Positions 1 through 59,789 of a stretch of 64,000 nt of DNA are shown one piece after another. The number at the start of each line of letters is the position of its first letter. Within the stretch, counting starts at the first letter, position 1. The notes beneath the pieces were generated by a model that was given only the letters and a program-made list of their open reading frames with translations, did not search any database and was not told where the DNA came from. The position numbers were made by a program, and so were the translations under genes. The stretch comes from Clostridia bacterium (lineage in GTDB: Bacteria; Bacillota; Clostridia; UMGS1883; UMGS1540). The stretch spans positions 26,590 through 90,589 of the forward strand of contig JAZSDN010000042.1 of NCBI GenBank assembly GCA_045531205.1, in the 5' to 3' direction.

Positions 1-330
1 TAAGGCGGATTTGCAAACCGCTATGCGAAGACCATTTTTGCTGATAATGATACTCCCGTCTTGAACTCGTCACTGAATTGGACGGCAGGCCATCAGAATG
101 GGCTGAGGTGAAATTCCTGTGGGAAGGTGCTGCTTCCGTTTTGATGTAAAGCAAACTTAACTTGATAATACTTACACATTCACCGATTATCTTTAATGTA
201 CGGCGGTCAAAAATCTAAAAGAAAGGAGAAACTCAAACTTTCGGTGATTTGAGTATTAAATATATGACTTAGTAAATCGAAAGGAGAACTCACATGAGAT
301 TTGCAAGAATCGGAAAGGTGGGTGCGTAAT

Positions 331-525: not shown

Positions 526-649
526 AAAATTATATTAAATTTTACAATGGCTTGTACTGAAATTCCTGGACTACACAGCTAAAATATAGTATAATGAATA
601 TCGATAGTTAAGGTTCCTTCCGGTGCAAGCCATTAGGAAGGAGTTAATT

Positions 650-1888
650 ATGAATATAGAGAAAGGTAAAAAGAATAAACGGTTTGACAGTAACCGAAGG
701 GTGCTTCGCAAGGGCGAATCGCAGAGAAAGAACGGAACCTACGATTACAGATGGGTTGGCCCTGATGGAGTAAGGCACGCTGTATATGCGCCCACTCTGG
801 AAGAATTAAGAGAATTTGAAAAAGAAATTGTGATTGACGAATACGATGGAATTAAAACCGAAACAAAGAAGCTGACAGTTAACAATGTGTTTGATACCTG
901 GTGCGACTTAAAACGAGGTCTGAAAGATAACACATTTAAAAACTATCTTTATATGTATAATAACTATGTCAGAGACAGTTTTGGCAAGAATAGGATTGCG
1001 GATGTAAAGAAATCGGATGTGAAAAGGTTTTATAACACCCTCGCAGACGAAAGAATGTTATCTATATCCACCATCGATACAATTCACAATGTATTGCATC
1101 AGGTATTCGATTTAGCAGTGGATGATAACTGCATCCGTTCAAATCCTACTGACAAGATGCTCAAAGAACTGAAACAAGCTCACGATTTCGAAATCAAAGA
1201 GCGAAAAGCATTAACGGCAGATGAGCAAAGATTATTTCTGGACTTTTTGAAAAGAAAGCCTCAGTATAATCATTGGTATCCTCTATTCGCTGTAATGTTC
1301 GGTAGTGGCATGCGTATTGGTGAAGTGTCAGGACTTAGATGGTGCGATATTGACCTGGAAGAAGGAGTTATTGATATCAATCACACTCTCGTCTACTACA
1401 GCACAGGCAAAGGCAAGAAATGTAAATTTGCAATCAACACACCAAAGACGAAAAAGGGATACCGCAAAATTCCAATGATGGACTTTGTAAAGGAAGCATT
1501 CCTCCTTGAAAAAGCAAATCAGGACGAAACAGGTGTTAATTGTCAGGTAACCATTGATTGCTACACAGATTTCATATTTGTCAACCGATTTGGCAGTGTG
1601 CAGCATTACGGGACTGTCAATAAAGCAATCCGTAGGATTGTCCGTGACTACAATGACGAAGCATTGTTAAAAGAAGAAAATCCTGTCTTAATCCCCAACT
1701 TTAGTTGCCACAACCTTCGGCACACATTTGCCACAAGACTGTGTGAGGCAGATATAAATCTTTCGGTAATACAAAACGTCATGGGCCACAAAGAAATCAA
1801 GACAACATTAGAGATTTATACCCATGTAACCGAAGCAAAAAAGCGTGAGGAGGTCAATGCATTAGAAACCATGTTTTCATGGACATAA
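650..1888 (+). CDS. int: Tyrosine site-specific integrase, Tn916/Tn1549 family
   Basis: N-terminal LRKGESQRKNGTYDYRW resembles Int-Tn (TGESQRKDGRY). C-terminal catalytic motifs NLRHTFATRL and MGHKEIKTTLEIYTHV carry the R..H..R..Y signature. The xis-int pair sits at the element end. Confidence 0.85.
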   Translation: MNIEKGKKNKRFDSNRRVLRKGESQRKNGTYDYRWVGPDGVRHAVYAPTLEELREFEKEIVIDEYDGIKTETKKLTVNNVFDTWCDLKRGLKDNTFKNYLYMYNNYVRDSFGKNRIADVKKSDVKRFYNTLADERMLSISTIDTIHNVLHQVFDLAVDDNCIRSNPTDKMLKELKQAHDFEIKERKALTADEQRLFLDFLKRKPQYNHWYPLFAVMFGSGMRIGEVSGLRWCDIDLEEGVIDINHTLVYYSTGKGKKCKFAINTPKTKKGYRKIPMMDFVKEAFLLEKANQDETGVNCQVTIDCYTDFIFVNRFGSVQHYGTVNKAIRRIVRDYNDEALLKEENPVLIPNFSCHNLRHTFATRLCEADINLSVIQNVMGHKEIKTTLEIYTHVTEAKKREEVNALETMFSWT

Positions 1889-5519: not shown

Positions 5520-5642
5520 AAAACCCCTCCTTAATATGAGTTCAGTATAGCAAACAAAAAAATCAAAGTCAATATAAATTACAGTTGTTTTTTTGCTTTT
5601 TTTGTGTTAGAATACAAAAGGCTAAAAAGGAGAAATTTGCAA

Positions 5643-6749
5643 ATGATAAATTTTTTAAAGAAAAATGCAGTAATGACAATAGCATTTTTGGCAGCACTGG
5701 TAACCTCGTTTATTGTCCTGCCTGATAAAGAATATATAGGCTATTTTGACTTTAAAACATTAGTCTGTCTTTTTTGTGTCCTTGCAGTGGTGTGTGCACT
5801 AAAAAACATAAACTTTTTCTATATCCTTGCAAAAAGAATAGTACAGCTTTTTAAAACTGCAAGAATGAGCATTTTAGCTCTTGTATACATAACCTTTATA
5901 GGCTCAATGCTTATTGCAAACGATATGGCACTTTTAACATTTTTGCCGCTTGGATACTTTGTATTAACCACAACAGGTAAAGAAAAATATATGGCGTTTA
6001 CTTTTATAATGCAAAATATCGCAGCAAACCTTGGCGGAATGTTAACTCCCTTTGGAAATCCGCAAAATTTATATATCTATTCCTTCTACGATATTGCAAA
6101 CCTCGAATTTATGAAAATAATGGCACCGCCCTTTATTTTGTCTGTAGTTTTAATCACGCTTTTCTGCCTTATATTTGTAAAAAATGAACCCTTGAAAATT
6201 GAAGAAGACAAGGTAAAATTAGAACCCAAAAGAACAGTACTTTATCTTATTTTGTTTGCGTTTTCAATCCTCATAGTATTCAGGGGAATCCCTTATATTC
6301 TGGGACTTATAGTTATACCCGCAGTATTGTTTTTTGCAGATAGAAAAGCACTGAAAGACGTAGATTATCCCTTACTTTTAACCTTTGTATTTTTCTTTGT
6401 TTTTGCAGGGAATATGTCAAGAATGGATGCAGTTCAAAGCCTCTTCTCATTTTTGCTTTCAAAAAGCACATTTTTGTTTGGCGTACTGTCTTGCCAGTGT
6501 ATAAGTAATGTACCTTCAGCAATACTTTTGTCGCAGTTTACACAAAATTACAAGGAACTTCTTTTGGGTGTAAATATAGGCGGAGTAGGGACTTTAATAT
6601 CCTCGCTTGCAAGTCTTATCACATTCAGGGAATATGTAAAACATAATCCCAAAAAGACGTGGTATTATATCGGCTTATTCTCGCTTTATAACTTTGTATT
6701 TTTGTTAATTTTAACAGCTTTCGAGCTTTTAACAGCCTGCTCTTTGTAA
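5643..6749 (+). CDS. Integral membrane anion permease (ArsB/NhaD/citrate-transporter superfamily)
   Basis: About 10 predicted TM segments. AGGAG RBS lies before the ATG at 5643. Confidence 0.55.
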   Translation: MINFLKKNAVMTIAFLAALVTSFIVLPDKEYIGYFDFKTLVCLFCVLAVVCALKNINFFYILAKRIVQLFKTARMSILALVYITFIGSMLIANDMALLTFLPLGYFVLTTTGKEKYMAFTFIMQNIAANLGGMLTPFGNPQNLYIYSFYDIANLEFMKIMAPPFILSVVLITLFCLIFVKNEPLKIEEDKVKLEPKRTVLYLILFAFSILIVFRGIPYILGLIVIPAVLFFADRKALKDVDYPLLLTFVFFFVFAGNMSRMDAVQSLFSFLLSKSTFLFGVLSCQCISNVPSAILLSQFTQNYKELLLGVNIGGVGTLISSLASLITFREYVKHNPKKTWYYIGLFSLYNFVFLLILTAFELLTACSL

Positions 6750-8154: not shown

Positions 8155-11100
8155 ATGGCAAAGAGAACAGATATTAAAAAAGTACTTATAATAGGCTCTG
8201 GCCCTATAGTTATAGGTCAGGCGGCAGAATTTGACTATGCGGGAACACAGGCTTGCTTGTCACTTAAGGAGGAAGGATACGAGGTAATACTTGTAAACTC
8301 AAACCCCGCAACAATTATGACAGATACATCAATAGCAGATAAAGTGTATATGGAACCTCTCACTTTGGAATACATAGCAAAAATTTTAAGATACGAAAGA
8401 CCTGATGCAATAGTTCCGGGTATTGGCGGACAAACAGGTTTAAACCTTGCCGTTCAGCTTGAAAAGAAGGGTATCTTAAAAGAATGCGGAGTAGAGCTTT
8501 TAGGTACAAGCAGTAAGAGTATCGAGCGAGCAGAAGACAGAGAACTCTTTAAAAGTATGTGCGAGGAAATAGGAGAACCCGTTATTCCTTCCGAAATCAC
8601 ATATAACATAGAAGATGCAAAAAGAGCCGCAAAAGAAATAGGCTACCCTGTAGTACTTCGCCCTGCATTTACCTTGGGCGGAACAGGTGGCGGCTTTGCA
8701 AATAACGAAGAAGAGCTTATGGAAATAGGTCTTAATGCCTTCAAGCTTTCACCTGTTTCACAGGTACTTATCGAAAAGAGCGTTAAAGGCTATAAAGAAA
8801 TCGAGTTTGAAGTTATGCGTGACTCATCAGACCACGCAATAACAATCTGCGGTATGGAAAATATCGACCCTGTAGGCGTTCACACAGGCGACTCACTTGT
8901 TGTAGCACCCATTCTTTCACTTTCAGACCACGATTTAAAAATGCTCAACGACAGTGCAATAAAAATAATAAAAGAACTTAAAATCGAAGGCGGCTGTAAC
9001 GTTCAGTTTGCTTTGAATCCCGATACAAGTGAATATTACTTAATAGAGGTAAACCCAAGAGTTTCACGTTCGTCAGCACTTGCATCAAAAGCAAGCGGAT
9101 ATCCCATTGCAAGAGTTACCGCTAAAATTGCCCTTGGTATGAAGCTTGAAGAAATAGCGGTTGCAGGCGGCACCGCGGCAATAGAACCAAAGCTTGACTA
9201 TATAGTTGCAAAATTCCCACGCTTCCCCTTTGATAAATTTACATCAGCAACAAATGTTCTCGGAACACAGATGAAAGCAACAGGCGAAGTAATGGGTATA
9301 GGCTCAACCCTCACAGAATGTCTTTTAAAATCTGTACGTTCTCTTGAAACAGGCGTTTGCCACTTCTATCTTGCAAAGTTCGATAAAATGACAGATGACG
9401 AACTTAAAGACTACATAAAAGAATTCAAAGACGATAACGTTTTTGCAGTAGCCGAGCTTTTAAGACGTAAAACAAGCATCGAAGAACTGCACGAAATTAC
9501 AAAGATTACAGAACTCTTCCTTGAAGCATTTAAAGAAATAATCGAAATGGAAGACATAATCAAAAATAATAAAAACGATATTGAGGTTCTTAAAAAAGCA
9601 AAAATTATGGGATTTGCCGACAAGTTTATCGCCCAGCTTTGGAATTGCCCCGAAATTGATGTTTACAACAAAAGAAAAGCAAACAAAATTATACCCGTGT
9701 TCAGAATGGTTGATACCTTGCACACAGGCAAATATATTGCATATCTTTATTCATCTTATACAGGCGAAAACGAATCAAGACTTACCGATAAAAAGAAAAT
9801 TATCGTACTCGGTGCAGGTCCTATCCGTATAGGTCAGGGCGTAGAGTTTGACTATTCAACAGTACACGCAGTACAAACCATTAAAAAGTCTGGGTACGAG
9901 GCTATTATAATCAACAATAACCCCGAAACAGTTTCAACCGACTATACAACTGCCGATAAGCTTTACTTTGAACCCTTAACACCCGAAGATGTTATGGCAA
10001 TAATCGACTTTGAAAATCCCGAAGGTGTTATAGCAACATTAGGCGGACAAACAGCAATAAACCTTGCAGAACCCCTTGTTGCAAGAGGAGTAAAAATTAT
10101 CGGTACAGACTGCGATGCAATAGACAGAGCAGAAAACCGTGACAGATTTGAAAAAATATTAAAAGAACTTTCAATTCCACAGCCACAAGGTAAAGCCGTA
10201 ACAAAAATAGAAGATGGCATAAAAGCTGCAAAAGAAATAGGTTACCCTGTTTTGGTACGTCCTTCATTCGTACTTGGCGGCAGAGCAATGCAGATAGTTG
10301 CGAATGAAGAACAATTAAAGCATTACCTTAAAACAGCGGTTGAGGTTGATGCAGATAAACCCGTACTTGTTGACAAATATATTCAGGGTAAAGAGGTTGA
10401 GGTTGATGCTATTTGCGACGGCAGAGACGTTTTTGTACCTGGTATTATGGAGCTTGTTGAAAGAACAGGTATTCACTCGGGCGACTCAATAAGTGTTTAC
10501 CCAACATTCAGTATTTCCGATAAAGTAAAGGGTATTATTTTGCAGTATGCAAAAAAACTTGGACTTGGAATAGGAATTATAGGTCTTTATAATATCCAGT
10601 TCATTGTTGATAAGGAAGACAATGTTTATATAATCGAAGTAAACCCCCGTTCTTCAAGAACAGTTCCCTTCCTTTCAAAATCAACAGGCTACTCGCTTGC
10701 AGATATCGCAACCGAAGTTATAATGGGTAAATCCTTAAAAGAACAGGGAATTTTTGATATATATCCAAAAGAGAAAAATCGTTTCTATGTAAAGGTACCC
10801 GTGTTCTCATTCAATAAAATAAAAGGACTCGACAGCTATCTTTCACCCGAAATGAAATCAACAGGTGAAGCAATAGGCTACGACGATAAATTAAACCGTG
10901 CCCTTTATAAAGCATTGCAGGCAAGCGGAATGCATCTGCAAAACTACGGTACAGTGCTTGCAACCATTGCCGATGACGATAAAGAAGAAGCACTTCCTTT
11001 AATAAAGAGATTCTATAACCTCGGCTTTAATATCGAAGCGACAGAAGGAACAGCAAACTTCTTAAAAGAACACGGCATACGCACCCACGTTCTTAAAAAG

Positions 11101-11328
11101 ATAAGCAGCGGAAGCGAAGAGATTTTAGATTCCATAAGACAGGGTCATATCGCCTATGTTATAAACACAAAAGCCGCAAATGCGACTCATCAGACAGGCG
11201 ACGGTCAGCAAATCCGCCACTGTGCAACAGAAAATAACGTAACAATATTCACTTCCCTTGACACAGTAAGAGTTTTACTTGATATTTTAGACGAAACCAC
11301 TCTTACAATATCAACAATTGATGCATAA
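8155..11328 (+). CDS. carB: Carbamoyl-phosphate synthase large subunit
   Basis: 1057 aa with a duplicated ATP-grasp half. EVNPRVSRSSALASKATG, EVNPRSSRTVPF and the MGS-like C-terminus are present. Confidence 0.95.
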   Translation: MAKRTDIKKVLIIGSGPIVIGQAAEFDYAGTQACLSLKEEGYEVILVNSNPATIMTDTSIADKVYMEPLTLEYIAKILRYERPDAIVPGIGGQTGLNLAVQLEKKGILKECGVELLGTSSKSIERAEDRELFKSMCEEIGEPVIPSEITYNIEDAKRAAKEIGYPVVLRPAFTLGGTGGGFANNEEELMEIGLNAFKLSPVSQVLIEKSVKGYKEIEFEVMRDSSDHAITICGMENIDPVGVHTGDSLVVAPILSLSDHDLKMLNDSAIKIIKELKIEGGCNVQFALNPDTSEYYLIEVNPRVSRSSALASKASGYPIARVTAKIALGMKLEEIAVAGGTAAIEPKLDYIVAKFPRFPFDKFTSATNVLGTQMKATGEVMGIGSTLTECLLKSVRSLETGVCHFYLAKFDKMTDDELKDYIKEFKDDNVFAVAELLRRKTSIEELHEITKITELFLEAFKEIIEMEDIIKNNKNDIEVLKKAKIMGFADKFIAQLWNCPEIDVYNKRKANKIIPVFRMVDTLHTGKYIAYLYSSYTGENESRLTDKKKIIVLGAGPIRIGQGVEFDYSTVHAVQTIKKSGYEAIIINNNPETVSTDYTTADKLYFEPLTPEDVMAIIDFENPEGVIATLGGQTAINLAEPLVARGVKIIGTDCDAIDRAENRDRFEKILKELSIPQPQGKAVTKIEDGIKAAKEIGYPVLVRPSFVLGGRAMQIVANEEQLKHYLKTAVEVDADKPVLVDKYIQGKEVEVDAICDGRDVFVPGIMELVERTGIHSGDSISVYPTFSISDKVKGIILQYAKKLGLGIGIIGLYNIQFIVDKEDNVYIIEVNPRSSRTVPFLSKSTGYSLADIATEVIMGKSLKEQGIFDIYPKEKNRFYVKVPVFSFNKIKGLDSYLSPEMKSTGEAIGYDDKLNRALYKALQASGMHLQNYGTVLATIADDDKEEALPLIKRFYNLGFNIEATEGTANFLKEHGIRTHVLKKISSGSEEILDSIRQGHIAYVINTKAANATHQTGDGQQIRHCATENNVTIFTSLDTVRVLLDILDETTLTISTIDA

Positions 11329-11600
11329 CCGAAAGAGAGTAATCCGAACCTGCCTAAAACGGTGGAATTTCGGCATCTTTTGGCTTGTCATCCTTGCAAG
11401 GCACAAAGCCTTGCTTCCTCTTCCGCACCAAAATCTACTCAAAATTTCATCCGTTTTAGGTCAATAGAATTTTTAGAGCAGCAGATTTTTGATTGCGGAA
11501 GGCAAAAACACAGGTAATCCTGGCGGATTACCGAGTATTTTAACACATCGAAAGCGAAAATCGGCCTCTAAAAATCAGAGTTCGGATTATTCACTTTCGG
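11329..11600 (+). ncRNA. 272-nt highly structured intergenic element closed by a 21-bp terminal helix (candidate structured RNA or miniature inverted-repeat element)
   Basis: CCGAAAGAGAGTAATCCGAAC (11329-11349) pairs 20 of 21 with GTTCGGATTATTCACTTTCGG (11580-11600). Nested long-range pairs include CCTAAAACGG/CCGTTTTAGG and TTTTTAGAG/CTCTAAAAA. Local hairpins include CAAGGCACAAAGCCTTG and GGTAATCCTGGCGGATTACC. It sits between carB and pyrK. Confidence 0.4.
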
Positions 11601-11613
11601 TTAAGGATAAATT

Positions 11614-12345
11614 ATGAAAAACTGTATTTTTAACATAAAAGAGAATATAGCCTTAACAGAAAATGTTTTTAAAATGACCTTGACGGGCGACACAAAAGAC
11701 ATTTTGCCAGGCCAGTTTGTAAACATAAAGCTTGACGGACTTTATTTAAGACGTCCCATTTCGGTGTGCGATGTAGATAACGGAAACCTTGTTATAATCT
11801 ACAAGGTGGTAGGTCACGGCACCGAAAAAATGAGCCTTATGAAAGAAGGCAGCCTTGATGTTTTAACACATCTCGGTAACGGCTACAGCTTAAAAGAATC
11901 AGGCGAAAAACCCTTGCTTTTAGGCGGCGGTGTAGGCGTACCCCCACTTTATATGCTTGCAAAAGAGCTTATAGCACAGGGTAAAAAAGTTTCGGTAATA
12001 CTTGGGTTTAATACCAAAAGCGAAATCTTTTACGAAAACGAATTCAAGGCTTTGGGAGCAGAGGTTTTTGTTACAACAGTTGACGGAAGCTATGGCACAA
12101 AAGGCTTTGTAACCGATAAAATGAAAGAGCTTGACTATACCTATATCTACACCTGCGGACCCGAAAATATGCTCAAAGCCGTATACCGCGAAAGTAAAAG
12201 TAGCGGACAGTTCAGCTTTGAAGAGAGAATGGGTTGCGGCTTTGGTGCTTGTATGGGATGTTCGTGCAAAACAATAACAGGCTATAAAAGAATATGTAAA
12301 GAAGGCCCCGTGCTATTTAAGGAGGAAATATTATGGGAAAGCTGA
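11614..12345 (+). CDS. pyrK: Dihydroorotate dehydrogenase electron-transfer subunit
   Basis: FAD/NAD-binding fold with a C-terminal 2Fe-2S ligand pattern CGFGACMGCSC. Confidence 0.9.
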   Translation: MKNCIFNIKENIALTENVFKMTLTGDTKDILPGQFVNIKLDGLYLRRPISVCDVDNGNLVIIYKVVGHGTEKMSLMKEGSLDVLTHLGNGYSLKESGEKPLLLGGGVGVPPLYMLAKELIAQGKKVSVILGFNTKSEIFYENEFKALGAEVFVTTVDGSYGTKGFVTDKMKELDYTYIYTCGPENMLKAVYRESKSSGQFSFEERMGCGFGACMGCSCKTITGYKRICKEGPVLFKEEILWES

Positions 12346-14593: not shown

Positions 14594-15985
14594 ATGAAAA
14601 AGATTATATTACTTCTACTTGTTTTTTGTATGCTTATGCCATTTTCAACTGCATTTGCAGCAGAAAAGGAAATAAGTGTTTATCTTGACGGAAAAAAACT
14701 TGCATTTGATGTTTTACCCGAAATTGTTAATAGCCGCACCATGGTTCCCATGCGTAAAATTTTTGAAGAAATGGGAGCCGAGGTCAGCTGGAACGGAGCA
14801 AACCGTAGCATAAATGCAACCTGCGGAAATCTTAAAATAAGAATGGCTATAGATTCAAACATTCTGCAGGTAAACTCAAAAGAATTCAAACTCGACCAGC
14901 CGCCGCAGATTAAAGATAGCAGAACTTTAGTGCCTCTGCGCGCAGTGGCAGAAGCATTTTCTGCAAAAGTAGACTGGGACGGAAATAAAAGAAGAGTAGA
15001 TATTTACTCTAAATATCCAGAAGAACTTGACAAATCTTTAAGCATTACTCTTGGCGAAAATTACGACAGACATTATTTTGATTTTTCAAGCGAAAGTGTT
15101 GACGGTGTAGAGTATTCGGTTACAGTAAAGGATAATAAAATTTTTTTCCGTGGAGGAACCGCACTTTTTTACAGTGCCGATATATTTATCTGGGAAGGCG
15201 ATACAGGTTACGGACTTGAAGATGCAAGCTGGAATACCAAGGACATCTACAAAAAATGCGACTTTGAAGTAGTAGCTTCGTGCCGTCAGTTTACAGACGA
15301 AAAAGTATATCTTAGTGCATGGGCAACAATAATGGACGGCAATTATGACGGACATGATTTTAACGATACAAAATCCTTTGTTTTGGAAAAACAAAACGGC
15401 GAATATGTAATATTGCAAGAAGAATCGCCTGTATACCAAAGCAACAAAGCCTTTGTTTCAAAGTGGGAAAACCCTGTAAAATATATAAAAGAAATAACTG
15501 ACAAAGATGTTATTGCGTTGTCAAACAAAATTTGTGCAGGCGCAAAGAATGATTACGATAAAGTTTTAAAAATTCACGACTGGGTAGCGGATAATATTTA
15601 TTATGATTTGAACGCTTTTTTCACAAATCGAATTACAATAACATCAGTTTCCGATGTTTTAAAACACAAAAGAACAGTTTGTGCAGGCTATGCAAATGTT
15701 ACAGAGGCTCTTATATGTGCCCAAGGCATACCTTGCCGCATTGTAAACGGTTATGCCCTGGGAATTGGCACCGAAGGAGAATGGACAAAAGAAAATTCAG
15801 CATATACAAAAACAAATCATGCATGGAACAGAGCCTATGTTGATAACAGATGGATAAATATTGACACTACATGGGACAGCGGCAATGAATATATTAACGG
15901 AGATTTTGAAAAGGGATACGTAGAGCATAAATATTTTGATATTACTGATTTAGAATTTTCAAACACACATAAATATATCAAATAG
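14594..15985 (+). CDS. Secreted transglutaminase-like cysteine protease-fold protein with copper-amine-oxidase N-terminal-type repeats
   Basis: Signal peptide. Two NSRTMVPMRKI and DSRTLVPLRAV repeats. Transglutaminase core Cys (CAGYANVTEALICAQGIPCRIVNGY), His (NHAWN) and Asp (DTTWD). Start is 2 nt after the pyrE stop. Confidence 0.7.
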   Translation: MKKIILLLLVFCMLMPFSTAFAAEKEISVYLDGKKLAFDVLPEIVNSRTMVPMRKIFEEMGAEVSWNGANRSINATCGNLKIRMAIDSNILQVNSKEFKLDQPPQIKDSRTLVPLRAVAEAFSAKVDWDGNKRRVDIYSKYPEELDKSLSITLGENYDRHYFDFSSESVDGVEYSVTVKDNKIFFRGGTALFYSADIFIWEGDTGYGLEDASWNTKDIYKKCDFEVVASCRQFTDEKVYLSAWATIMDGNYDGHDFNDTKSFVLEKQNGEYVILQEESPVYQSNKAFVSKWENPVKYIKEITDKDVIALSNKICAGAKNDYDKVLKIHDWVADNIYYDLNAFFTNRITITSVSDVLKHKRTVCAGYANVTEALICAQGIPCRIVNGYALGIGTEGEWTKENSAYTKTNHAWNRAYVDNRWINIDTTWDSGNEYINGDFEKGYVEHKYFDITDLEFSNTHKYIK

Positions 15986-15997
15986 AGGAGGGAAAAG

Positions 15998-16918
15998 ATG
16001 AGAAGTCTTATTGATATACTCGATTTTTCTACAGATGAAATAGAAGATTTAATAGCTACAGCGGAAGACATTATAGGAAATCCTGAAAAATACAGCGAAA
16101 AGTGTAAGGGTAAAAAGCTTGCCACACTCTTTTTTGAACCTTCCACAAGAACAAGGCTCAGCTTTGAAGCAGCAATGTACGAGCTTGGCGGAAATGTAAT
16201 AGGCTTTTCGGAGGCAACAAGCTCATCTTCTGCAAAAGGAGAAAGTGTCTCAGATACAGCAAAAGTTATAAGCTGTTATGCCGATATTATAGCAATGCGT
16301 CACCCAAAAGAAGGTGCGGCACTTGTTGCGGCAAAGGCGGCATCTATCCCCGTAATAAATGCGGGAGACGGCGGTCATTGCCACCCAACGCAGACTCTTG
16401 CAGACCTGTTGACAATACACAGAGAAAAAGGAAGATTTGATAATCTTACCATAGGATTTTGCGGAGACTTGAAGTTTGGCAGAACAGTACATTCTCTTAT
16501 AAACGCCCTGTCAAGATATCAAAACATAAAAATAGTACTTATATCTCCCGAAGAATTAAAGCTTCCAAGCTATATCAAAAAAGAAGTTTTGGTAAAAAAC
16601 AATATTCCTTATGTGCAGACGCAGAATCTTGAAGAAGTTATGCCAGAGCTTGACATTCTTTATATGACAAGAGTGCAGAAAGAACGTTTCTTCAACGAAG
16701 AAGATTATTTAAGACTTAAAGACAGTTATATTCTCACCCCGCAAAAACTTGCAGGTGCAAAAGAAGACCTTTCAATAATGCATCCCCTGCCAAGGGTAAA
16801 CGAAATAAGCGTAGCTATAGATGAAGACCCACGAGCATGCTATTTTAAGCAGGTTAAAAACGGTAAATATATGAGAATGGCGCTTATATTAAAACTTTTG
16901 AAGGAGGCGTCAAAATGA
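15998..16918 (+). CDS. pyrB: Aspartate carbamoyltransferase catalytic subunit
   Basis: STRTR and HPTQ motifs. Confidence 0.9.
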
Positions 16919-18901: not shown

Positions 18902-18916
18902 AATAAAGAAGAAAAA

Positions 18917-19060
18917 TTCTTTGTGACTGACGGAGTGTCATCGGAGATTCGAACTAAACTCCCCGATGACTAAGCGGTATACCGCAAGGGAACAAAGAAT
19001 ACTATTTAAAGCCGACCGTCTGGGCACATTTATTCTCTTATAGAGTAAGTGTGCCTTTTG
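18917..19060 (+). ncRNA. ZTP (ZMP/ZTP, pfl-motif) riboswitch with terminator expression platform
   Basis: P1 is TTCTTTGTG paired with CAAAGAA. GACTGACGGAG plus P2 GTCATCGGAG/CTCCCCGATGAC. The 3' pseudoknot strand CCGACCGTCTGGGCA matches the ZTP consensus CCGACCGCCUGGGCA and overlaps the terminator GGCACA...TGTGCC TTTT (19023-19059). Confidence 0.85.
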
Positions 19061-40881: not shown

Positions 40882-41152
40882 AATAAAAGTCGTACACCCC
40901 TTCTTCGAAATATTCCTACATACGGTTTCAATGCGGCTTGCTCTTGCCGGGCTGTCTTGCGGCACACACAGAATACCGCTTATCGCTGCTCGGTTCCCCG
41001 CCTGACGAGGTTCACGGGCCCATGTTGCGCAAGGACCGGCCGTCAACACCGCCCACAAAGGCCTGCTACACAGGAATACACCTTAGAAAGGGAGTTTGCC
41101 CCCGCTATAGCGGATTGCGGGTACAAGGCACCGCTAACTCCCCAGCTAGTAC
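40882..41152 (-). ncRNA. ffs: Signal recognition particle RNA (Bacillus-type long SRP RNA / scRNA)
   Basis: Minus-strand read GCGGTGCCTTGTACCCGCAATCCGCTATAGCGGGGGCAAACTCCC is close to B. subtilis scRNA. Domain IV is GTCAGGCGGGGAACCGAGCAGC with a GGAA tetraloop and AGCAGC. Length about 271 nt. Minus-strand promoter TTGAAT-17-TATAAT. Sits upstream of dnaX as in B. subtilis. The region is GC-rich in an AT-rich genome. Confidence 0.85.
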
Positions 41153-41216
41153 GACTTACTTATTATACACCATTTTTAAAATTTATTCAATATAAAAAAC
41201 AAAAAATTAAAAAAAA

Positions 41217-41334: not shown

Positions 41335-41408
41335 AGGGGTATGATGTAATGGTAACATGCCGGTCTCCAAAACCGTTCTTGAGGGTTCGAGTCCTTCTAC
41401 CCCTGCCA
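41335..41408 (+). tRNA. trnW: tRNA-Trp (anticodon CCA)
   Basis: AGGGGTA...GGTCTCCAAAACC...GGTTCGAGTCC...TACCCCTGCCA. Anticodon loop is CU-CCA-AA. Closely resembles B. subtilis tRNA-Trp. CCA is encoded. Confidence 0.85.
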
Positions 41409-41808: not shown

Positions 41809-43023
41809 TTATATTTCGAATCCATCTGTGATTCCATTCAGCCTTGAGGTGTCCTTCTTTACATAGTACATCTCAGTTATCTGTGATGTCGTGTGTCCGA
41901 GTATGTCTGCCACTTGCTTTGGGCTGAGTACTTTGATGCTACCATCAGGTTGTTTCACTCCGTTTACTAAGTTGGTTGCAAAGGTGTGCCTTAGCGAGTG
42001 CAGCCCTTTTCTTTCTATCCCTGCAGAATCCAGGATTCTATAGAATCTCTTTCGGAAGTTCACCGGCTTTGTGAAGTTGCCATGCTCATCGCATATCAGC
42101 GGCGTATCCTCTCCGAAGTAGTATTCTGCTCTAAGCTCTTTTATCGCCTCTATCGCGGCATCATTCAGTGGTGCGGTGCGATTGCTTGTCAGCGTCTTTG
42201 TTTTACCCACCTTGGCTGATTTTCCGCCTGTAGCTTTGGTGCCTTCTCGGTTGTATACTTCTTTCATCGAGTTTTGGATTTTCATTTGCCTTTTCTCGAT
42301 GTCGATATCTCGGTTATTTACCGCTAGTATCTCGCCAGGCCTTGCTCCTGTGTTGAGCATTAGGATATATGCGGCAGCTTGTTGGTGCTTTCGTTCTCCG
42401 TTTGAGTATGTGGCGTAGGCTTCTTCCTTGAACTTTTTGAGTTCATTCGGATCGAGTATGGTTATTGTCTCGCATTCAGGCAGTAGTTCCTTACCTTGTG
42501 CTGACAGGAAGTTTGGCTTTTTTATCATTTCCACATTATCCATTGGGTTCTTGCTTATCATTGCTTCGAGGTACATTGTCCTGAAGTATTCGTTTAGGAG
42601 TACATAGGCTTTCTTTACTGTTGAGAAGGATAATCCTTTGTTCATCCAGTGATTCAGCAGATTTTTTATATCCGCTGCTACGATGTCACCGACTACCTTA
42701 TCTCCGAGTATGGGATATACCTGATTTATTGCCGTACATTCGCATCTGTCGTATGTCGTTTGTTCTACTGCAGGGAATTTGAATATCTCAAGCCAATTCT
42801 GCATGCTGTCCTTGAGCAATTTCTTGCTTTCGTCAGACAGTTCGACCTGATTCTCGAATTCCGCAATGTAGGCGGTGATTTTCTTGTTGGCTTCCTGTTT
42901 GGTAGTTCCTGAGAAGGATTTCCTTTTGCGGTTGCCTTGCTCGTCCATGTACCATACGACTCCGCCCCAACGACCGTCTGTTCTTTTGAACACATTTCCG
43001 TTTGTAAGTAGCTTTCTCTGCAT
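41809..43023 (-). CDS. int: Tyrosine site-specific integrase (phage/ICE-type) adjacent to tRNA-Trp
   Basis: HSLRHTFATNLV and LGHTTSQITEMYY catalytic motifs. ATG at 43023 with AAAGGAAG RBS. The ORF-track N-terminal extension is probably spurious. Confidence 0.85.
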   Translation of the reverse strand: MQRKLLTNGNVFKRTDGRWGGVVWYMDEQGNRKRKSFSGTTKQEANKKITAYIAEFENQVELSDESKKLLKDSMQNWLEIFKFPAVEQTTYDRCECTAINQVYPILGDKVVGDIVAADIKNLLNHWMNKGLSFSTVKKAYVLLNEYFRTMYLEAMISKNPMDNVEMIKKPNFLSAQGKELLPECETITILDPNELKKFKEEAYATYSNGERKHQQAAAYILMLNTGARPGEILAVNNRDIDIEKRQMKIQNSMKEVYNREGTKATGGKSAKVGKTKTLTSNRTAPLNDAAIEAIKELRAEYYFGEDTPLICDEHGNFTKPVNFRKRFYRILDSAGIERKGLHSLRHTFATNLVNGVKQPDGSIKVLSPKQVADILGHTTSQITEMYYVKKDTSRLNGITDGFEI

Positions 43024-43213
43024 TATCTCACTTCCTTTATTTTGTATTACCATTTTGGCAACACAAACAATACCGTAAAGACCGTTACAAGTCAAGCGGT
43101 TTTGGCAAACAAATCTGCAAAGAATTTCAAAAGACATATAACAGTAATTTTATTGATATATAGTAAAAATTAAAGCTGTTTTATTTTGTGATGGTATTAT
43201 CATTAAAAAAATA

Positions 43214-44617
43214 GGCTCTATAATAAAAGTTGGGGTAACCAAGTAGAGCCTACGAAAAAATAATAAAAAAGGTAGAGCATATTTGGAAGAAATCCGTTAA
43301 AATGGAAATGACGAGTAACCATGAACGGAGAACCAAATATGCTCTACAAACATTTTACAGAAAAACTTCTCGGATTGCAAGGGTTAAATATCACAAATAT
43401 CGAGGAAAACGAAAAAAACATCTCAATATACGCAGAGTTGGAACGAAAAGAACATATATGTATCTGTTGCGGAGCGGTAACGGATATGATTCACGACTAC
43501 TGCACACAAGTAATCAAAGACATCTCGGCTTTCGGCAAGCTTGTAAATATCGTTTTACGAAAGCGAAGGTATCGATGTACTTGCTGTGGTAAAAGATTTT
43601 TTGAAGAAAATACATTTCTTCCTAAATATCATAGAATGACTAATCGTCTTGCAGCTTTTGTGATAGATAAACTCCGCGATGAACGCTCTTTCACAAGTGT
43701 AGCAAAAGAGGTTAACCTTTCGGTATCTACTGTTATCCGTATGTTTGATATCATCTCTTATCCTAAAGCCAAACTGAATACAGCTTTATCCGTTGACGAA
43801 TTTAAAGGAAACACAAACGGCGAAAAATACCAATGCATTTTAACAGATCCTATCAACAAGGTTGTTTTAGATATATTACCCGAGCGATACGGACACTATT
43901 TAACCAAATACTTTAAAAGCATACCACGAGAGGAACGGAAACAAGTAAAATACTTCGTAAGTGATATGTGGAGAACATATGCCGATACTGCCAATGTATG
44001 GTTTAAAGATGCAACTCTGATAATAGATAAATACCACTGGATAAGGCAAGCTATATGGGCATTTGAAAACATCCGAAAAAAAGAGCAAAAGAATCTTAGT
44101 CCCGAGCTTCGCAAATATTTCAAACGATCAAAGTCTCTGCTGATAAAGCGATATGATAAGCTCAAAGAAGAGCAAAGACAACAGGTTGATGTGATGCTTT
44201 ACTATTCTGCAAACATAAGCCGCGCTTATTGGTACAAAGAAGAATTCTTGAAAATATTAACTCACAAAGAACCGGAATTAGCTCAAAATGCATTGGCAGA
44301 ATGGGTGAAAAACGCGGAGCATTGCGGAATATTGCCGTTTGAAAAATGTGCTGATACTATTCGCAATTGGTATACAGGTATCACAAACTCTTTTTCTACC
44401 TCAATCACCAACGGCTTTACTGAAGGCTGTAACAACAAGATTAAAGTTCTTAAACGTAACGCGTACGGTTACAAGAATTTCAATAGATTCAGAAACCGTA
44501 TTTTACATATATTTTCCCATCAGCAGCTTCATAATCAACAAGCAGTCGTCTGATGACGACTGCCTGCCTAATCACTTTTTCATTTTAACTCTTTACCCCA
44601 ACTATTGACAAAGAGCC
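43214..44617 (+). mobile_element. ISL3-family insertion sequence (1404 bp) with imperfect 25-bp terminal inverted repeats and 8-bp target-site duplication AAAAAATA
   Basis: IRL GGCTCTATAATAAAAGTTGGGGTAA (43214-) against the reverse complement of IRR GGCTCTTTGTCAATAGTTGGGGTAA (ends 44617). Flanking 8-bp direct repeats AAAAAATA at 43206-43213 and 44618-44625. Confidence 0.8.
43339..44553 (+). CDS. tnp: ISL3-family transposase
   Basis: N-terminal zinc-finger ICICCGAVTDMIHDY...RYRCTCCGKRF. DDE_Tnp_ISL3-like body (DEFKGNTNGEKYQCILTD). Confidence 0.85.
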   Translation: MLYKHFTEKLLGLQGLNITNIEENEKNISIYAELERKEHICICCGAVTDMIHDYCTQVIKDISAFGKLVNIVLRKRRYRCTCCGKRFFEENTFLPKYHRMTNRLAAFVIDKLRDERSFTSVAKEVNLSVSTVIRMFDIISYPKAKLNTALSVDEFKGNTNGEKYQCILTDPINKVVLDILPERYGHYLTKYFKSIPREERKQVKYFVSDMWRTYADTANVWFKDATLIIDKYHWIRQAIWAFENIRKKEQKNLSPELRKYFKRSKSLLIKRYDKLKEEQRQQVDVMLYYSANISRAYWYKEEFLKILTHKEPELAQNALAEWVKNAEHCGILPFEKCADTIRNWYTGITNSFSTSITNGFTEGCNNKIKVLKRNAYGYKNFNRFRNRILHIFSHQQLHNQQAVV

Positions 44618-47016: not shown

Positions 47017-47592
47017 TTACTTACTTATCTGACCGTTGGTAACTGTTACACCCCAACTACTTTCTACTGCCTTTGTGGGTTTGCTTTGTATTGCAGATGC
47101 TAGGATTTCCACGCTAAGGCCGTAACCTTCCAAACCGCTTCCTTTAATGCTACAGTTTTCAATTAAAACTCCCGTTTCCTTCTGAGGAGAAACTGGCTTA
47201 GTGTAATAATAAAATCCATTTTTCTCAAGCCAGTCAGAATTATTTATGGTAATTGTATAATCCTTATCCTTTTGAGGCTCCATAGCGTATACATTACCTG
47301 CAGAATCTTTCCATGTTACAATTATAGCAGCACGAATGTAACTTTCTGTATCTCCGGTATTTAATACACGTACATTTGATTTGTCTACACTTGTACCATT
47401 TATAAATTTCTCTTCTACAACCTCACAAGCAACATTGGAATAATTAAAAGTGTTTTTTACTGAATCCGTCCGTGTAACTAAAAATGCCAATGTAGAGCCT
47501 GCCACAGCAGCAAAAATCGAAACTAATACAACGAGTATTATGCTTTTATTAAATCTTTGTTGTCTTCTTCTTGCGTGTTTGCCTCTACTCAT
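47017..47592 (-). CDS. TasA/camelysin-like protein with SipW-cognate-type signal peptide (fifth paralog)
   Basis: Signal ...FAAVAGSTLAFLVTRTDSVKNTF resembles the SipW-cognate class (GGT-x-A-[YF]-x-TD). Start overlaps the giant protein stop by 8 nt. Confidence 0.55.
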   Translation of the reverse strand: MSRGKHARRRQQRFNKSIILVVLVSIFAAVAGSTLAFLVTRTDSVKNTFNYSNVACEVVEEKFINGTSVDKSNVRVLNTGDTESYIRAAIIVTWKDSAGNVYAMEPQKDKDYTITINNSDWLEKNGFYYYTKPVSPQKETGVLIENCSIKGSGLEGYGLSVEILASAIQSKPTKAVESSWGVTVTNGQISK

Positions 47593-50500
47593 TAGTCTCG
47601 ACCTCCTCTTCACCAGATGTATCTGCTTTACTAGATGCATTTCCTTTACCAAATCTATTATCGCAATAAGCATTACCATCTAACCAAAATATTTTCGTCC
47701 TTTCGTTTTCAAAAGGAATCGCTGTTCCATCGGCATCGACAGAAACTTCTTTAATTGGGTCTTTTGGACTGTATCTCCAACTCCAATCGCTTATTTCTTT
47801 TACTTGATACTTACCTACAGGCAGATCCTTAATAGTTACACTATCGTTTCCATGGATGACTACTGTAATACTGATATTTGTATTGTTTGCATCAATACCT
47901 GTAACCTTAAAAATGAAACTTTGATTTTCGTCAATATCGTCAGCTCCCGACTTAGTTATGGTTAGATCAGCTAAAGCTCGTTTATAATAAAATGTATAAA
48001 CATTTAGCTCGGCCTTATCACCTTTCTCTATTTTTATATTAATTGAACCTGAATCACGAGAAGAAGTGTAGCCGTTAATTTGCTTTGCGTTTTTCACAAC
48101 CTGCGCACCATAACGGGCAATATCTCTTTCAGGTTCTGCAAGCACCTTATCTGTACCTTCCTCAACAAACCTGAACTCATACGGATACAGGTTTCTGTTA
48201 TAATACAGTTTTAGAACCAATCCTTCTGCTGTAACCGTACCAGATACTGTTGAGTTTCCTGTTTCAGGTGTAACATCTTTATCATTCGCAGTTGCACGGA
48301 TAAAATTGAAGCCATCAATCAGTAGGATAGATGCACTAAATTCGCCATTAATTGCAGTGTTTAAACTTGAAGTATTCTGATACACTGTATATCCTTCACC
48401 CTCTATATTTTGAATATAGTGGATTACTTGAACTGGAGCATGTTCAGTATCTTTAATATAATAAAAAGTAATTATGTTTTCCTGCTCATTGGCAGACAAC
48501 ACCAAGGTTTTCTGATAAGCATCAGGCATATATCCAGATATTATTTCAAAAGTCTCTGTTACAATGGCTTTAGTTGTCACAGAGTTTTTATCAAATTCGA
48601 GCTGTTCACCTGTCGCTTTATCAATATATCGCACTGTATAATTGACTTTATCTTTTGCAACATATACAAATGTAAATATGTTTTTCGAAGCATCATCCGC
48701 ACTCAGTGTAATGGAATGACTGCTTGTTTCGGGAAAATATCCTTCACGATACTCTTCATTAAGGTCATCTCCTGCTTTTGCAAGAAAAGTTTTTGTTGTT
48801 CCTGCCAATGCCTGACCTGTTGTTGAAGGTGCAATATAAATGAGTTTTTCTCCTTCTTCAACAGCATATTTAATTGTATAATTTACTAATACATTCGATG
48901 ACCATTTTCCATAAAGTACAAGGTCCTGATTAACAGGCATTGAAAAATCAAAAGCTCTTTCTTTGCCGTCACTTCCCTCGTAGAACCAACCCACAAATGA
49001 ATAACTGCCATTTGTAGGAGTTTCTGGTTTTTCTGCAAGGGATCCATGTGAAACTGTTTGAGTTTCACCTATCTGCTTATTAAGATCGTTAGTTTTGAAT
49101 ATCTTGACAGTATGTGTTTTTGGTGTCCATTTTGCATAGAGTGTTAAATCGTTTGCAGGCATCTTTACAGTCTCAAAATCAACCTTTGTATCACCGAAGA
49201 AGGGAGACTCGTACCAGCCTTCAAATACATATGCATCGGGTTCAAAATTTACAGGATAGTCTGGGTTAAAATTGTAACTCTTCAGAGGCGCCTCATACTG
49301 CACTCTGCCACCCGCATCAGATACAGTTGTACCATGATTGGAGAAAGTTAAGTTATAAGAAACACGATCATAATACAGATAATTCACATGGTCATAGCCA
49401 TTTCCAGAACCACCAAGTTTTGCGCTGTCTTGATTGTTCTGATAAGTACCAAACGCAGGATCCGCATTGCTCCGACTTCTGCTAAATCCGTCTATATTAT
49501 GGTATTCCTCTTCATAGGTAATATAATTAAAATTATGCTCAACGGACTTCATAAGTTTATATGTTTTACCATTGAATGTTCGGGTAGTTAATCCCGACAA
49601 TTCTTCACCATTGACAATTTCAACATAATAATATATCACACATTTCGTGCCTCGATTTTCACCAGTAAACGTTACATCATTGCCCGGCATAACGTCAAGC
49701 GTCTGCAATGCATAGCCATATGTATCGCCGTCTTTATCTGTCCATGAATATCCACTATATGAAGTACCATTTTCACTCACTATAGGAAAGTAGTGAGAAA
49801 TTTTTGACTCATATTTACGGTTAACTACCTTAACGATGCTTTTTGAGCTAGCATTTTTACAGCTGTTGTTGTGCGTATGTTCAATTTTTTCACAGTCATA
49901 ACAAACAGTGCTGTGAGTGTGTTCGTATCCATATGTACACTTATTTGTATTTGCTGGAGAGTAAGCACTATGATTGTGCCTCCTAGCATTACAACATTCA
50001 TCACAAGAATGTTGGTGTTCAGGCAAAGTACAAACAATCTTGCAGTTGTCATGAGAATGTTCCTCTAAAACGCAAAGTCCATCAGCTTCAAATATTAAGT
50101 TATATTTATTTCTTGTATAATAAACATTCACAACAGTTGAACCATCCCCCTGAACGGTAACATTTTCATCTGCATGAGAATATGTGAAGTGTTCATCATC
50201 TCTTTCAGAAAAATCACGTTCTTTATACTCAACACCATTGACTATCGTCCCGGATTCAGCTGGCACATTTTCTAACACACCAGCCTGAGAATAACCGTCA
50301 TCATCAGCATTTTCATACCAAAAAACAACATCAAAAGAAGTGTCTCCAACTGTCCACTGTGCCGTAAACCGTTTATTTTCTGCAGGCATGGTGTCAGGAA
50401 TTGGGCCGTCCCAACCTGTGAAAGAATAGCCAGGTCTGTTAGGTGTACCCACACTAATGGGTGTGCCATATCGGGCATAAATGGGTTCTACACCATATCC

Positions 50501-51946
50501 GCCACCCAAATCAAATGACATTAAATAATAATAACGATCATAATATATCTCTACTTCAGTACTTCCGTCTGCAGCAATTTCAAGAGTAGTATCATAGTTA
50601 TAAGCATAAAATCCTTTGTACTCTTTTTTTAGATTTTCACCAACTGTTGAACCCGTATAACCTTGCATCGTTTCGGTTTCGTCTAATATGTAATAATCAT
50701 TTTCTGCATTTTGTTTGTAATGATATACTTTAAATTCAACTTCTGCCGGATAGTATGTAACAGTATAAATTTCATCTTGTGTAATCGAAGAAATATCAAT
50801 AGTACAAGAATCCTCTTTGGGAGCAAATCCTTTTACCATAGGGTTTTGTATAGTCTCTTTTACCTCTGATCCTTTTGGAAATGTTCCGGACCATGACGGA
50901 GCTGCGATTTCGCCATTTTGATACACATAATTTATAATGACAGTATAGGTTTCAAGTTCACTTCCAGAATCTCCGTTTTCATCAGCAAGCATAACGCCAT
51001 TAACCTCGTCTGCATTTGAAAAAGTGCTTAATTTCATTATACTATATTCTGCATTCGCACCATTTTCAATTGGATTATTATCACCATCAAGGCTGTCATT
51101 CTCAATCGTTAATTCTGTGACATCTTCGTCATCACTGTGAATCTCATAATCTGTGGGACTTCCATTTTCTTGAGTTTCGTCTTCATCGAGTTTATCTTCT
51201 TCATACGGGATTACAGTTACTTCAATTGGGTCACCCTCAATTACCTTTGAGGATTTTCTTGTTGTAAGTCTTATTTTGGCTTGAAATTCATCTAGTACAG
51301 TAGCGACAACACCATATGATAGTAAAAATTCTGGTTCATCTGCTCCATAAATGTCAATCCAGGTTTCGTCAATGAAAATCTGCCATTGATAATCCACATC
51401 ACCAGACAAAGAACTTTCGCCAATGAGCTTTTTCTTCTCATATTGTGGCAACTCTATTTGTTCCCCAACTTCGTTACCTTCTTCATCAATAACAGTAATG
51501 TTGTCTTTTTCAGTTATCTCTATAATAAGTGAATCGTATGCATCAGCATCTTCGCCTAGGTAATTTTGAAATACCCAAGGATACTCAATTAATTTCTCCG
51601 GCGCCTCACAATCCGGAGCGGCCTCTACTTTATACCAAAGACAAGGTAAATCCCCTTCATTATTAGAAATATGGTAATCCGTAATAACAACTTTAAATCC
51701 TTCTTCCAAGTCTTCCTCAATAAGTTGATATTCTGTATCCCAAGATAAATTAGAAGGATCATCACTTACGGGGAAATAGTCATAGACATCAGTATTGAAT
51801 GTGGCTATACAACCAATATTCTTTTCATATTCAATTGTTTCTGAATATGCCATAGCAATAAGACTATTAAACAAACTTGTAACCAACATCGAAATTACGA
51901 GGAATACTGATATTGCCCTATTCTTTATATTGTTTTCTCTAATCAT
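47585..51946 (-). CDS. 1453-aa secreted surface protein with Listeria-Bacteroides (Flg_new) repeats, a His/Cys-rich repeat region and a C-terminal CnaB/prealbumin-like domain
   Basis: N-terminal signal ending SLIAMAYSE. Repeats GYSFTGWDGPIPDTMPAENKRFTAQWT, YVFEGWYESPF...LTLYAKWTP and YSFVGWFYEG...LVLYGKWS. EHSHDNC, EHQHSC, EHTHSTVC and EHTHNNSC cluster. C-terminus ...VTIKDLPVGKYQVKEI... with no LPXTG. Confidence 0.7.
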   Translation of the reverse strand: MIRENNIKNRAISVFLVISMLVTSLFNSLIAMAYSETIEYEKNIGCIATFNTDVYDYFPVSDDPSNLSWDTEYQLIEEDLEEGFKVVITDYHISNNEGDLPCLWYKVEAAPDCEAPEKLIEYPWVFQNYLGEDADAYDSLIIEITEKDNITVIDEEGNEVGEQIELPQYEKKKLIGESSLSGDVDYQWQIFIDETWIDIYGADEPEFLLSYGVVATVLDEFQAKIRLTTRKSSKVIEGDPIEVTVIPYEEDKLDEDETQENGSPTDYEIHSDDEDVTELTIENDSLDGDNNPIENGANAEYSIMKLSTFSNADEVNGVMLADENGDSGSELETYTVIINYVYQNGEIAAPSWSGTFPKGSEVKETIQNPMVKGFAPKEDSCTIDISSITQDEIYTVTYYPAEVEFKVYHYKQNAENDYYILDETETMQGYTGSTVGENLKKEYKGFYAYNYDTTLEIAADGSTEVEIYYDRYYYLMSFDLGGGYGVEPIYARYGTPISVGTPNRPGYSFTGWDGPIPDTMPAENKRFTAQWTVGDTSFDVVFWYENADDDGYSQAGVLENVPAESGTIVNGVEYKERDFSERDDEHFTYSHADENVTVQGDGSTVVNVYYTRNKYNLIFEADGLCVLEEHSHDNCKIVCTLPEHQHSCDECCNARRHNHSAYSPANTNKCTYGYEHTHSTVCYDCEKIEHTHNNSCKNASSKSIVKVVNRKYESKISHYFPIVSENGTSYSGYSWTDKDGDTYGYALQTLDVMPGNDVTFTGENRGTKCVIYYYVEIVNGEELSGLTTRTFNGKTYKLMKSVEHNFNYITYEEEYHNIDGFSRSRSNADPAFGTYQNNQDSAKLGGSGNGYDHVNYLYYDRVSYNLTFSNHGTTVSDAGGRVQYEAPLKSYNFNPDYPVNFEPDAYVFEGWYESPFFGDTKVDFETVKMPANDLTLYAKWTPKTHTVKIFKTNDLNKQIGETQTVSHGSLAEKPETPTNGSYSFVGWFYEGSDGKERAFDFSMPVNQDLVLYGKWSSNVLVNYTIKYAVEEGEKLIYIAPSTTGQALAGTTKTFLAKAGDDLNEEYREGYFPETSSHSITLSADDASKNIFTFVYVAKDKVNYTVRYIDKATGEQLEFDKNSVTTKAIVTETFEIISGYMPDAYQKTLVLSANEQENIITFYYIKDTEHAPVQVIHYIQNIEGEGYTVYQNTSSLNTAINGEFSASILLIDGFNFIRATANDKDVTPETGNSTVSGTVTAEGLVLKLYYNRNLYPYEFRFVEEGTDKVLAEPERDIARYGAQVVKNAKQINGYTSSRDSGSINIKIEKGDKAELNVYTFYYKRALADLTITKSGADDIDENQSFIFKVTGIDANNTNISITVVIHGNDSVTIKDLPVGKYQVKEISDWSWRYSPKDPIKEVSVDADGTAIPFENERTKIFWLDGNAYCDNRFGKGNASSKADTSGEEEVETNE

Positions 51947-59729: not shown

Positions 59730-59789
59730 AATTTCACACTCCAATCTTAAAAATTCTTGTAATTTTGAAGACACCTGTTTTAACACCTG

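Follow-up and report, generated by a model that had tools for sequence, protein, structure and literature searches.

The folded carB-pyrK spacer of a Clostridia pyr operon is very probably one copy of an apparently undescribed MITE family dispersed in gut Clostridia

ERIC (IRU) sequences of Enterobacteriaceae are miniature inverted-repeat mobile elements (MITEs) of ∼127 bp with orientation-dependent effects on mRNA fate (PMC3184786). Correia elements (NEMIS/CREE) of Neisseria are often found in mRNAs, where their paired repeats are an RNase III substrate (PMC10969869). In Streptococcus pneumoniae, the 107-bp RUP has repeats that resemble an IS630-family element, and its mobilisation by IS630-Spn1 has been proposed; BOX and SPRITE are highly base-paired, multicopy intergenic pneumococcal repeats that share transcripts with adjacent genes (PMC3049150). 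Criteria for prokaryotic MITEs have been set out (PMC3184786, PMC11602168), with a size of about 50 to 800 bp (PMC11602168), and the others applied here were the absence of a transposase gene, inverted repeats of at least 10 to 15 bp, a target duplication of 2 to 10 bp, and dispersed copies.

We analyzed a folded spacer in a 64-kb stretch of DNA (the window), where the gene order around it is pyrC-carB-pyrK-pyrD-pyrF-pyrE and the spacer lies between carB and pyrK. The initial annotation had placed a strongly structured element at this position and had read it either as an RNA domain specific to the operon or as a MITE. NCBIfam equivalogs confirmed both flanking genes and with them the location (Table 1). 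The second of the two readings is the one that held, on inverted repeats, a TA duplication, dispersed copies, empty sites, and the lack of a transposase open reading frame (ORF). We put the probability at roughly 0.88 that the spacer is one copy of a ∼270-bp nonautonomous DNA transposon, a MITE, dispersed in the chromosomes of gut Clostridia. The family is apparently undescribed so far.

Like ERIC, the present element has terminal inverted repeats, a TA at both ends, an intergenic position near gene ends, and long stem-loops; ERIC sequences are cotranscribed with their neighbours, as we infer for the present element. It differs from ERIC in that its hosts belong to a different phylum, in being twice as long (274 nt), and in its predicted Y shape with two arms instead of a single hairpin. 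Correia elements are likewise MITEs with inverted repeats (∼25 bp in their case), and they too duplicate TA. They measure 104 to 157 bp and contain an IHF site and promoter elements, whereas the present element is larger, has another architecture, and has no sense-strand promoter-like site. RUP, like the present element, is a Firmicutes MITE, and the IS630 family is suggested here as well by the TA duplication, but the partner insertion sequence is known for RUP and none was found here, and length, sequence, and host differ. BOX is modular (boxA, boxB, boxC) and SPRITE is terminator-like, and TA-flanked 21-bp inverted repeats are reported for neither in PMC3049150. Going by these descriptions, the element is outside the Correia, ERIC, and RUP families, from which host, length, and architecture set it apart.

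Table 1. Coordinates of the element, its flanking genes, and other features of the window
Feature	Position	Strand	Basis or remark
MITE proper, 274 nt, A...T termini	11328..11601	+	Family copies, alignment breaks
Left TA target copy	11326..11327	.	Flank profile (54 copies): T 48/54, A 51/54
Right TA target copy	11602..11603	.	Flank profile: T 52/53, A 53/53
Left terminal inverted repeat, A-CCGAAAGAGAGTAATCCGAAC	11328..11349	+	Repeat pairing, 54-copy alignment
Right terminal inverted repeat, GTTCGGATTATTCACTTTCGG-T	11580..11601	+	Repeat pairing, copy alignment, flank profile
Left internal arm, long imperfect hairpin, tip GCAAGGC...GCCTTGC	11352..11461	+	Alifold columns 24-133
Right internal arm, long imperfect hairpin, tip GGTAATCC...GGATTACC	11469..11575	+	Alifold columns 141-251
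carB, carbamoyl-phosphate synthase large subunit, 1057 aa	8155..11328	+	NCBIfam NF003671 equivalog, 1429 bits
pyrK, dihydroorotate dehydrogenase electron-transfer subunit, 243 aa	11614..12345	+	NCBIfam NF000799/NF000798
carB TAA stop codon	11326-11328	+	Target TA plus first element base
pyrK Shine-Dalgarno AGGA	11604-11607	+	Sequence; directly abuts element
pyrK start codon ATG	11614-11616	+	Sequence
pemK RNA motif	44-122		Window start
Tn916-type integrase	623-1888		
ZMP/ZTP riboswitch	18913-19032		Few hundred bases upstream of a + strand ORF run
Large SRP RNA	40890-41154	-	
Tyrosine integrase	41809-43137	-	
ISL3 insertion sequence	43214-44617		25-nt inverted repeats
1453-aa ORF	47585-51946	-	
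MobL relaxase	58602-59855	-	

The stretch from 11329 to 11600 that the initial annotation had delimited is the inner 272 nt of the element, whose true ends lie one base further out on each side. Its 21-nt terminal helix with 20 of 21 positions paired was borne out, counting one G-U: 11329-11349 against 11580-11600 gives 19 Watson-Crick pairs, one G-U pair, and one A-A mismatch. The nested long-range pairs (CCTAAAACGG/CCGTTTTAGG and TTTTTAGAG/CTCTAAAAA) are present, as are the local GC-rich hairpins, which appear as arm tips in Table 1. A GC content far above that of the surroundings had also been claimed, but at 42.3% the element differs only trivially from carB (39.2%) and pyrK (40.4%); the window as a whole has 37.8%. 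In the pyr cluster, carA is absent beside carB, the gene upstream being a CitMHS-type transporter (5604-6749), and pyrE is separated from pyrB (15998-16918) by a 463-aa ORF (14594-15985) whose NCBIfam match, to a family of transglutaminase-related lipoproteins, is weak and far subthreshold. No sense-strand promoter-like site was found between carB and pyrK.

Strong structure was evident in the window copy. Its predicted RNA fold has an energy of -100.4 kcal/mol, compared to -60.2 ± 4.6 kcal/mol for 200 dinucleotide shuffles (z = -8.8), and none of the 200 shuffles folded as well. The opposite strand reached -108.1 kcal/mol with the same z of -8.8; since both strands fold equally, the structure is a property of the palindromy of the DNA and not of one RNA strand. 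When the copy was folded with its flanks, the closing stem ran through the TA repeats, and the last carB codons were paired with the pyrK Shine-Dalgarno region. Scoring for terminator-like hairpins marked the arm tips on both strands (5 sites versus 1.1 expected). An alternative central hairpin (11420-11439/11480-11501) was dropped because alignment column 109 covaries with column 46 and not with the alternative partner. The lack of a match to the PyrR binding consensus, as first annotated, was upheld by an Rfam 15 search of the region 11000-11900 at E ≤ 10, in which no other RNA family matched beyond chance. With the window copy at E ≤ 10 and a further pair of family members at E ≤ 1, Rfam returned only chance microRNA and snoRNA hits; Rfam 15 has no model for this family, and a search of the whole window at the gathering score gave no match anywhere across the pyr cluster.

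The ends of the copies identify the target. Copies begin with TA followed by G(A)CCGAAAG and finish with CTTTCGGC(T) followed by TA, the flanking TA being present on both sides in about 90 to 100% of copies. Terminal repeats of 21 to 22 nt are conserved in all 54 aligned copies, and the terminal base pair covaries (G44/A9 on the left, C44/T9 on the right), with the window copy in the A...T subfamily. Judging from the sequence, the target hit in the pyr operon is the TA with which the TAA stop codon of carB begins, so that the ancestral junction GATGCATAAGGATAAATTATG was split. The first A of the element rebuilds TAA, and beyond the second TA the AGGA-N6-ATG of pyrK continues as before the insertion; with stop codon and ribosome-binding site thus regenerated, carB and pyrK are both intact.

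We compared this junction with those in 80 metagenomic loci encoding PyrK relatives of 64 to 76% identity, in 55 of which carB lies upstream. None of the 55 orthologous carB-pyrK junctions contained the element, either by blastn or by an nhmmer profile of 54 copies. The closest relatives, which are only about 76% identical in DNA and are not conspecific strains, have a carB-pyrK spacer of 7 to 13 nt, and in the closest junctions the sequence is GATGCATAAGG...ATG, as would be left in the window if the element and one TA were taken out. The empty junction of L128 is GATGCATAAGGGGTCAATTATG, with a single TA, and can be set beside the empty site predicted for the window, GATGCATAAGGATAAATTATG; that of L124 and L127 is GACGCTTAAGGAGATAAGATG, and the blastn alignment of the window with L127 breaks off at 11328 and picks up at 11598. 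A second filled and empty pair was found elsewhere: L101 has ...GTTTA, then the element, then TAGGAGG..., and the orthologous L011 has ...TATATAGGCGG... with a single TA. Together, TA duplication and empty site establish that the element is an insertion. Copies have a mean identity of 95% within one assembly versus 82% between assemblies, and copies that are 100% identical occupy different sites of one metagenome-assembled genome (MAG) in two cases (L101/L043/L038 and L103/L005).

In other lineages, the carB-pyrK junction holds unrelated palindromic inserts of 70 to 260 nt (L125, L132, L198, L137, L163, L150, L187, L190, L188). The inserts of L132 and L198 have GGGAGGGTCTTGACCCTCCC arms in common, and a GTGTCCAAA...TTTGGG hairpin recurs in those of L150, L187, and L190. 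From these sequences, small structured repeats seem to have landed in this junction repeatedly.

The initial annotation had held that many dispersed copies would mark a MITE, and such copies were found. When species-representative genomes were scanned for exact occurrences of the terminal motif CCGAAAGNGANTAATCCGAAC, at least 119 stretches were recovered; these belong to about 39 assemblies, with as many as 11 in a single one. Among the matches listed, the hosts are nearly all uncultured Clostridia MAGs from the gut of humans, goats, sheep, roe deer, and buffalo. By blastn we identified 53 full-length copies of 268 to 272 nt that are 72 to 95% identical to the window copy; many more end exactly at contig ends, as expected because repeats break assemblies. 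The dispersed copies have unrelated genes and tRNAs as neighbours. No second copy was detected within the 64-kb window by short-word blastn or by the nhmmer profile of 54 copies, and collections of plasmids, phages, and viral contigs gave no match to the element. Neither the terminal-repeat string nor any description of this family was found in the literature searched. In the 54-copy alignment, full-length copies have frame-breaking indels and the consensus has stops in five of six reading frames, which means that no reading frame is conserved and the element is not coding.

Variants of the element were also recovered. One subfamily (L076:640-910, L034:1086-1356, and L085:6234-6504) has the same terminal repeats and a length of 271 nt with a largely different core. 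Shorter derivatives also occur: internally deleted forms measure 154 and 204 nt, and others, 47 and 57 nt long, are reduced to the terminal inverted repeats. Mini-elements of ∼57 nt were seen at L004, L019, L051, and L107 and of ∼52 nt at L110, L025, L105, L039, and L023, with further ones at L074 (47 nt) and L080 (57 nt). In some mini-forms the ends are internal sequences resembling the termini (CTTTCGGCT and CGAAAGCG), which suggests, at the level of sequence, that the outermost 7 to 8 nt define the ends used.

Several copies lie directly after tRNA 3′ ends, in both orientations, with the tRNA on the left flank at L043, L038, L111, L070, and L068 and on the right flank at L119, L007, and L005; some tRNA arrays hold several family copies or fragments. 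On contig JAZNUH010000003, L049 and L050 are inverted copies ∼5 kb apart, and L099 and L106 lie on the same contig. Conceivably, an opposite-oriented pair with ∼5 kb between its members might behave as a composite element or serve as a substrate for inversion. The match in an Oligoflexia MAG (L016) has the motif without further similarity and looks like chance. Five matches (L025, L045, L079, L080, and L082) come from a bin with the label Roseburia faecis; by sequence, one of them, L082, has its ortholog in the Clostridia MAG contig L018, and the label may reflect a binning or naming problem.

We further examined the fold across the family. The consensus of 54 aligned copies is a Y, with a stem formed by the terminal repeats and two arms of ∼105 nt. 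Cells of the alignment that are predicted to pair do so in 97.3% of cases, versus 91.1% in shuffles and 30 to 54% with slid partners. Both sides changed in 25 of 68 pairs, versus 13.6 in shuffles and 8 to 13 with slid partners, counts in which the independent compensatory events are fewer than the cells because the aligned copies are related. The both-side changes comprise 9 pairs in helices 2 to 4 (left arm) and 16 in helices 6 to 8 (right arm), and some pairs, such as columns 146/246, show up to four pair types. Helix 1, the terminal repeat, is conserved in sequence and has no compensatory double changes, the pattern to be expected of a sequence that a protein recognises. The subfamily with the different core (L076) keeps the shape of a stem with two arms (z = -10.9). 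Covariation in the helices had been proposed in the initial annotation as the sign of a functional RNA; it is present among dispersed paralogous copies and not among orthologous carB-pyrK spacers, and, being confined to the paralogs, it does not rescue the reading as an operon-specific RNA.

The mean fold energy of the family is -106.2 kcal/mol for the plus strand and -110.0 kcal/mol for the minus strand. An apparent strand asymmetry in G-T versus A-C departures (323 versus 27) was rejected as an artefact of the folding program, which accepts only G-U; after symmetric loop positions were added, the departures numbered ∼64 and 68. The copies do show an orientation with respect to genes. Between codirectional genes, 24 copies have the orientation seen in the window and 10 are reversed, while 7 copies lie between convergent and 7 between divergent genes. 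In 24 of 54 copies the right end has an outward Shine-Dalgarno sequence and start codon no more than 32 nt away, against 7 copies for the left end; a gene 3′ end is found 16 nt or less from the left end in 20 copies and from the right end in 5, and the distance from gene 3′ end to element is often 0, that is, an insertion in the stop codon. Overall, co-orientation with flanking genes is about 3.5:1. A link to replication was considered and rejected, as local GC skew gave only 33:21 and follows gene direction. The compensatory changes in the arms and the ∼3.5:1 co-orientation exceed the needs of a purely passive MITE.

In size, inverted repeats, target duplication, and dispersal with mobility, the family has the properties by which prokaryotic MITEs are recognised. 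Insertion at TA with TA duplication is what marks MITEs derived from IS630/Tc1-mariner, though it is not exclusive to IS630. IS630/Tc1-mariner is the best-known TA-duplicating family, and some IS5 subgroups make 2- to 3-bp duplications that contain TA. We propose that a DDE transposase, acting in trans, would bind the inverted repeats and insert the element at TA with a 2-bp duplication; it may belong to IS630/Tc1-mariner or to an IS5 subgroup, the TA duplication being the one feature from which its family is read. Among the 119 8-kb loci listed, no partner transposase with matching ends was found; in the loci listed there were no matching end pairs more than 653 nt apart and no recurrent ORF among 770 ORFs. 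Two candidates for the partner were rejected: the 1.7-kb difference between L056 and L076 corresponds to a transporter gene and a decayed copy, and the only insertion sequence of the window, ISL3, has unrelated inverted repeats. ISL3 falls, together with the tyrosine integrase, the 1453-aa ORF, and the MobL relaxase, in a part of the window (41335-64000) that looks like an integrated mobile element beside tRNA-Trp (41335-41408); other features noted in the window are included in Table 1.

In the pyr operon, transcription would continue across the element and include it in the pyr mRNA, and the transcript is predicted to fold into a closed Y, with the terminal-repeat stem and two arms of ∼105 nt. 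Such a fold would restore the proximity of the carB stop codon to the pyrK ribosome-binding site, and a ribosome terminating on carB would open the closing stem. On this model, the operon probably tolerates the element and is not regulated by it. The comparison with Correia and ERIC suggests that RNases could cut the long helices of the element and thereby change how stable the mRNA is, with RNase III or RNase E as possible processing enzymes.

Other explanations were weighed against a MITE. The initial annotation had entertained an operon-specific cis-acting RNA for regulation, processing, or sensing, such as a PyrR-type attenuator or a riboswitch for pyrK-pyrD-pyrF-pyrE. The element does sit within the operon and immediately precedes the pyrK ribosome-binding site, its fold is very stable (z = -8.8), and its closing helix extends into the Shine-Dalgarno region when flanks are included, but it is missing from all 55 orthologous junctions and present at more than 100 unrelated loci. 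Moreover, it has no Rfam match, its opposite strand folds equally well, and the TA duplication and empty site mark an insertion, so that we consider this reading extremely improbable. No more credible is a nonmobile repeat of the REP/BIME or terminator type, spread by recombination and kept as a terminator or protein-binding site. The arm tips do score as terminator-like on both strands (5 versus 1.1 expected) and the copies are intergenic; against this, about half of the copies sit within codirectional gene pairs just before a ribosome-binding site, where a terminator would be harmful, and the precise TA boundaries, the identical copies at different sites, and the clean empty sites indicate transposition.

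More thought is due to readings in which the element is mobile in another way or for another reason. It could move as folded single-stranded DNA with an enzyme of the IS200/IS605 type or another HUH/Y1 enzyme, inserting 3′ of a TA and itself ending in TA, with no true duplication and with the arms serving as DNA hairpins for transposition. This would accommodate the hairpin architecture conserved on both strands and the orientation bias of about 3.5:1, and in formal terms the TA...TA flanks could represent a target and an end motif. Near-perfect inverted repeats that reach the very ends with a covarying terminal base are, however, typical of DDE enzymes and not of IS200/IS605, the forms reduced to terminal repeats still appear mobile, the orientation by GC skew (33:21) is weaker than the link to adjacent genes, and no TnpA/TnpB-like gene is associated. 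Nor does the family have the subterminal hairpins without terminal repeats or target duplication that characterize PATE or REP/RAYT, and we regard movement of this kind as improbable. Somewhat better placed, while still unlikely, is a MITE that selection also maintains for a role as an RNA module, either as a compact Y-shaped transcript that escapes Rho-dependent polarity or RNases or holds stop codon and ribosome-binding site close enough for translational coupling, or as an RNase III site that uncouples the two halves of an operon; in such a case the orientation of the element would be important. Such selection would fit the 97.3% paired cells, the both-side changes that all fall in the arms, the same length and two-arm architecture in the L076 subfamily, and the position of the right end near Shine-Dalgarno sequences and start codons and of the left end near gene 3′ ends; Correia and ERIC are documented targets of RNase III or RNase E in mRNAs (PMC10969869, PMC3184786). 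On the other side, stability shows no strand asymmetry, G-T and A-C mismatches are about equal, compensatory changes in a palindrome can come from correction within the hairpin in the absence of selection, and the relatedness of the copies makes independent events fewer than cells. Taking the fold, the precise docking between stop codon and ribosome-binding site, and the co-orientation together, we likewise give only a small chance to a mobile RNA module, be it an insulated, operon-compatible insert or a portable RNase III site that would reset the stoichiometry of the two operon halves, or to a single-stranded intermediate of a novel transposase.

Reading the spacer as a MITE means that a covariation-supported "structured RNA" in a biosynthetic operon is a mobile repeat, which should be masked and not carried forward as a riboswitch-like candidate. 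The family also breaks MAG assemblies, with many copies at contig ends. It adds an apparently undescribed MITE family that is abundant among uncultured Clostridia of the human and ruminant gut, and the window copy is an example of harmless entry into a tight operon, in which the stop codon was rebuilt and the ribosome-binding site left undamaged. A modest lead on how host transcription shapes MITEs comes from the conserved two-arm fold together with the bias in orientation.
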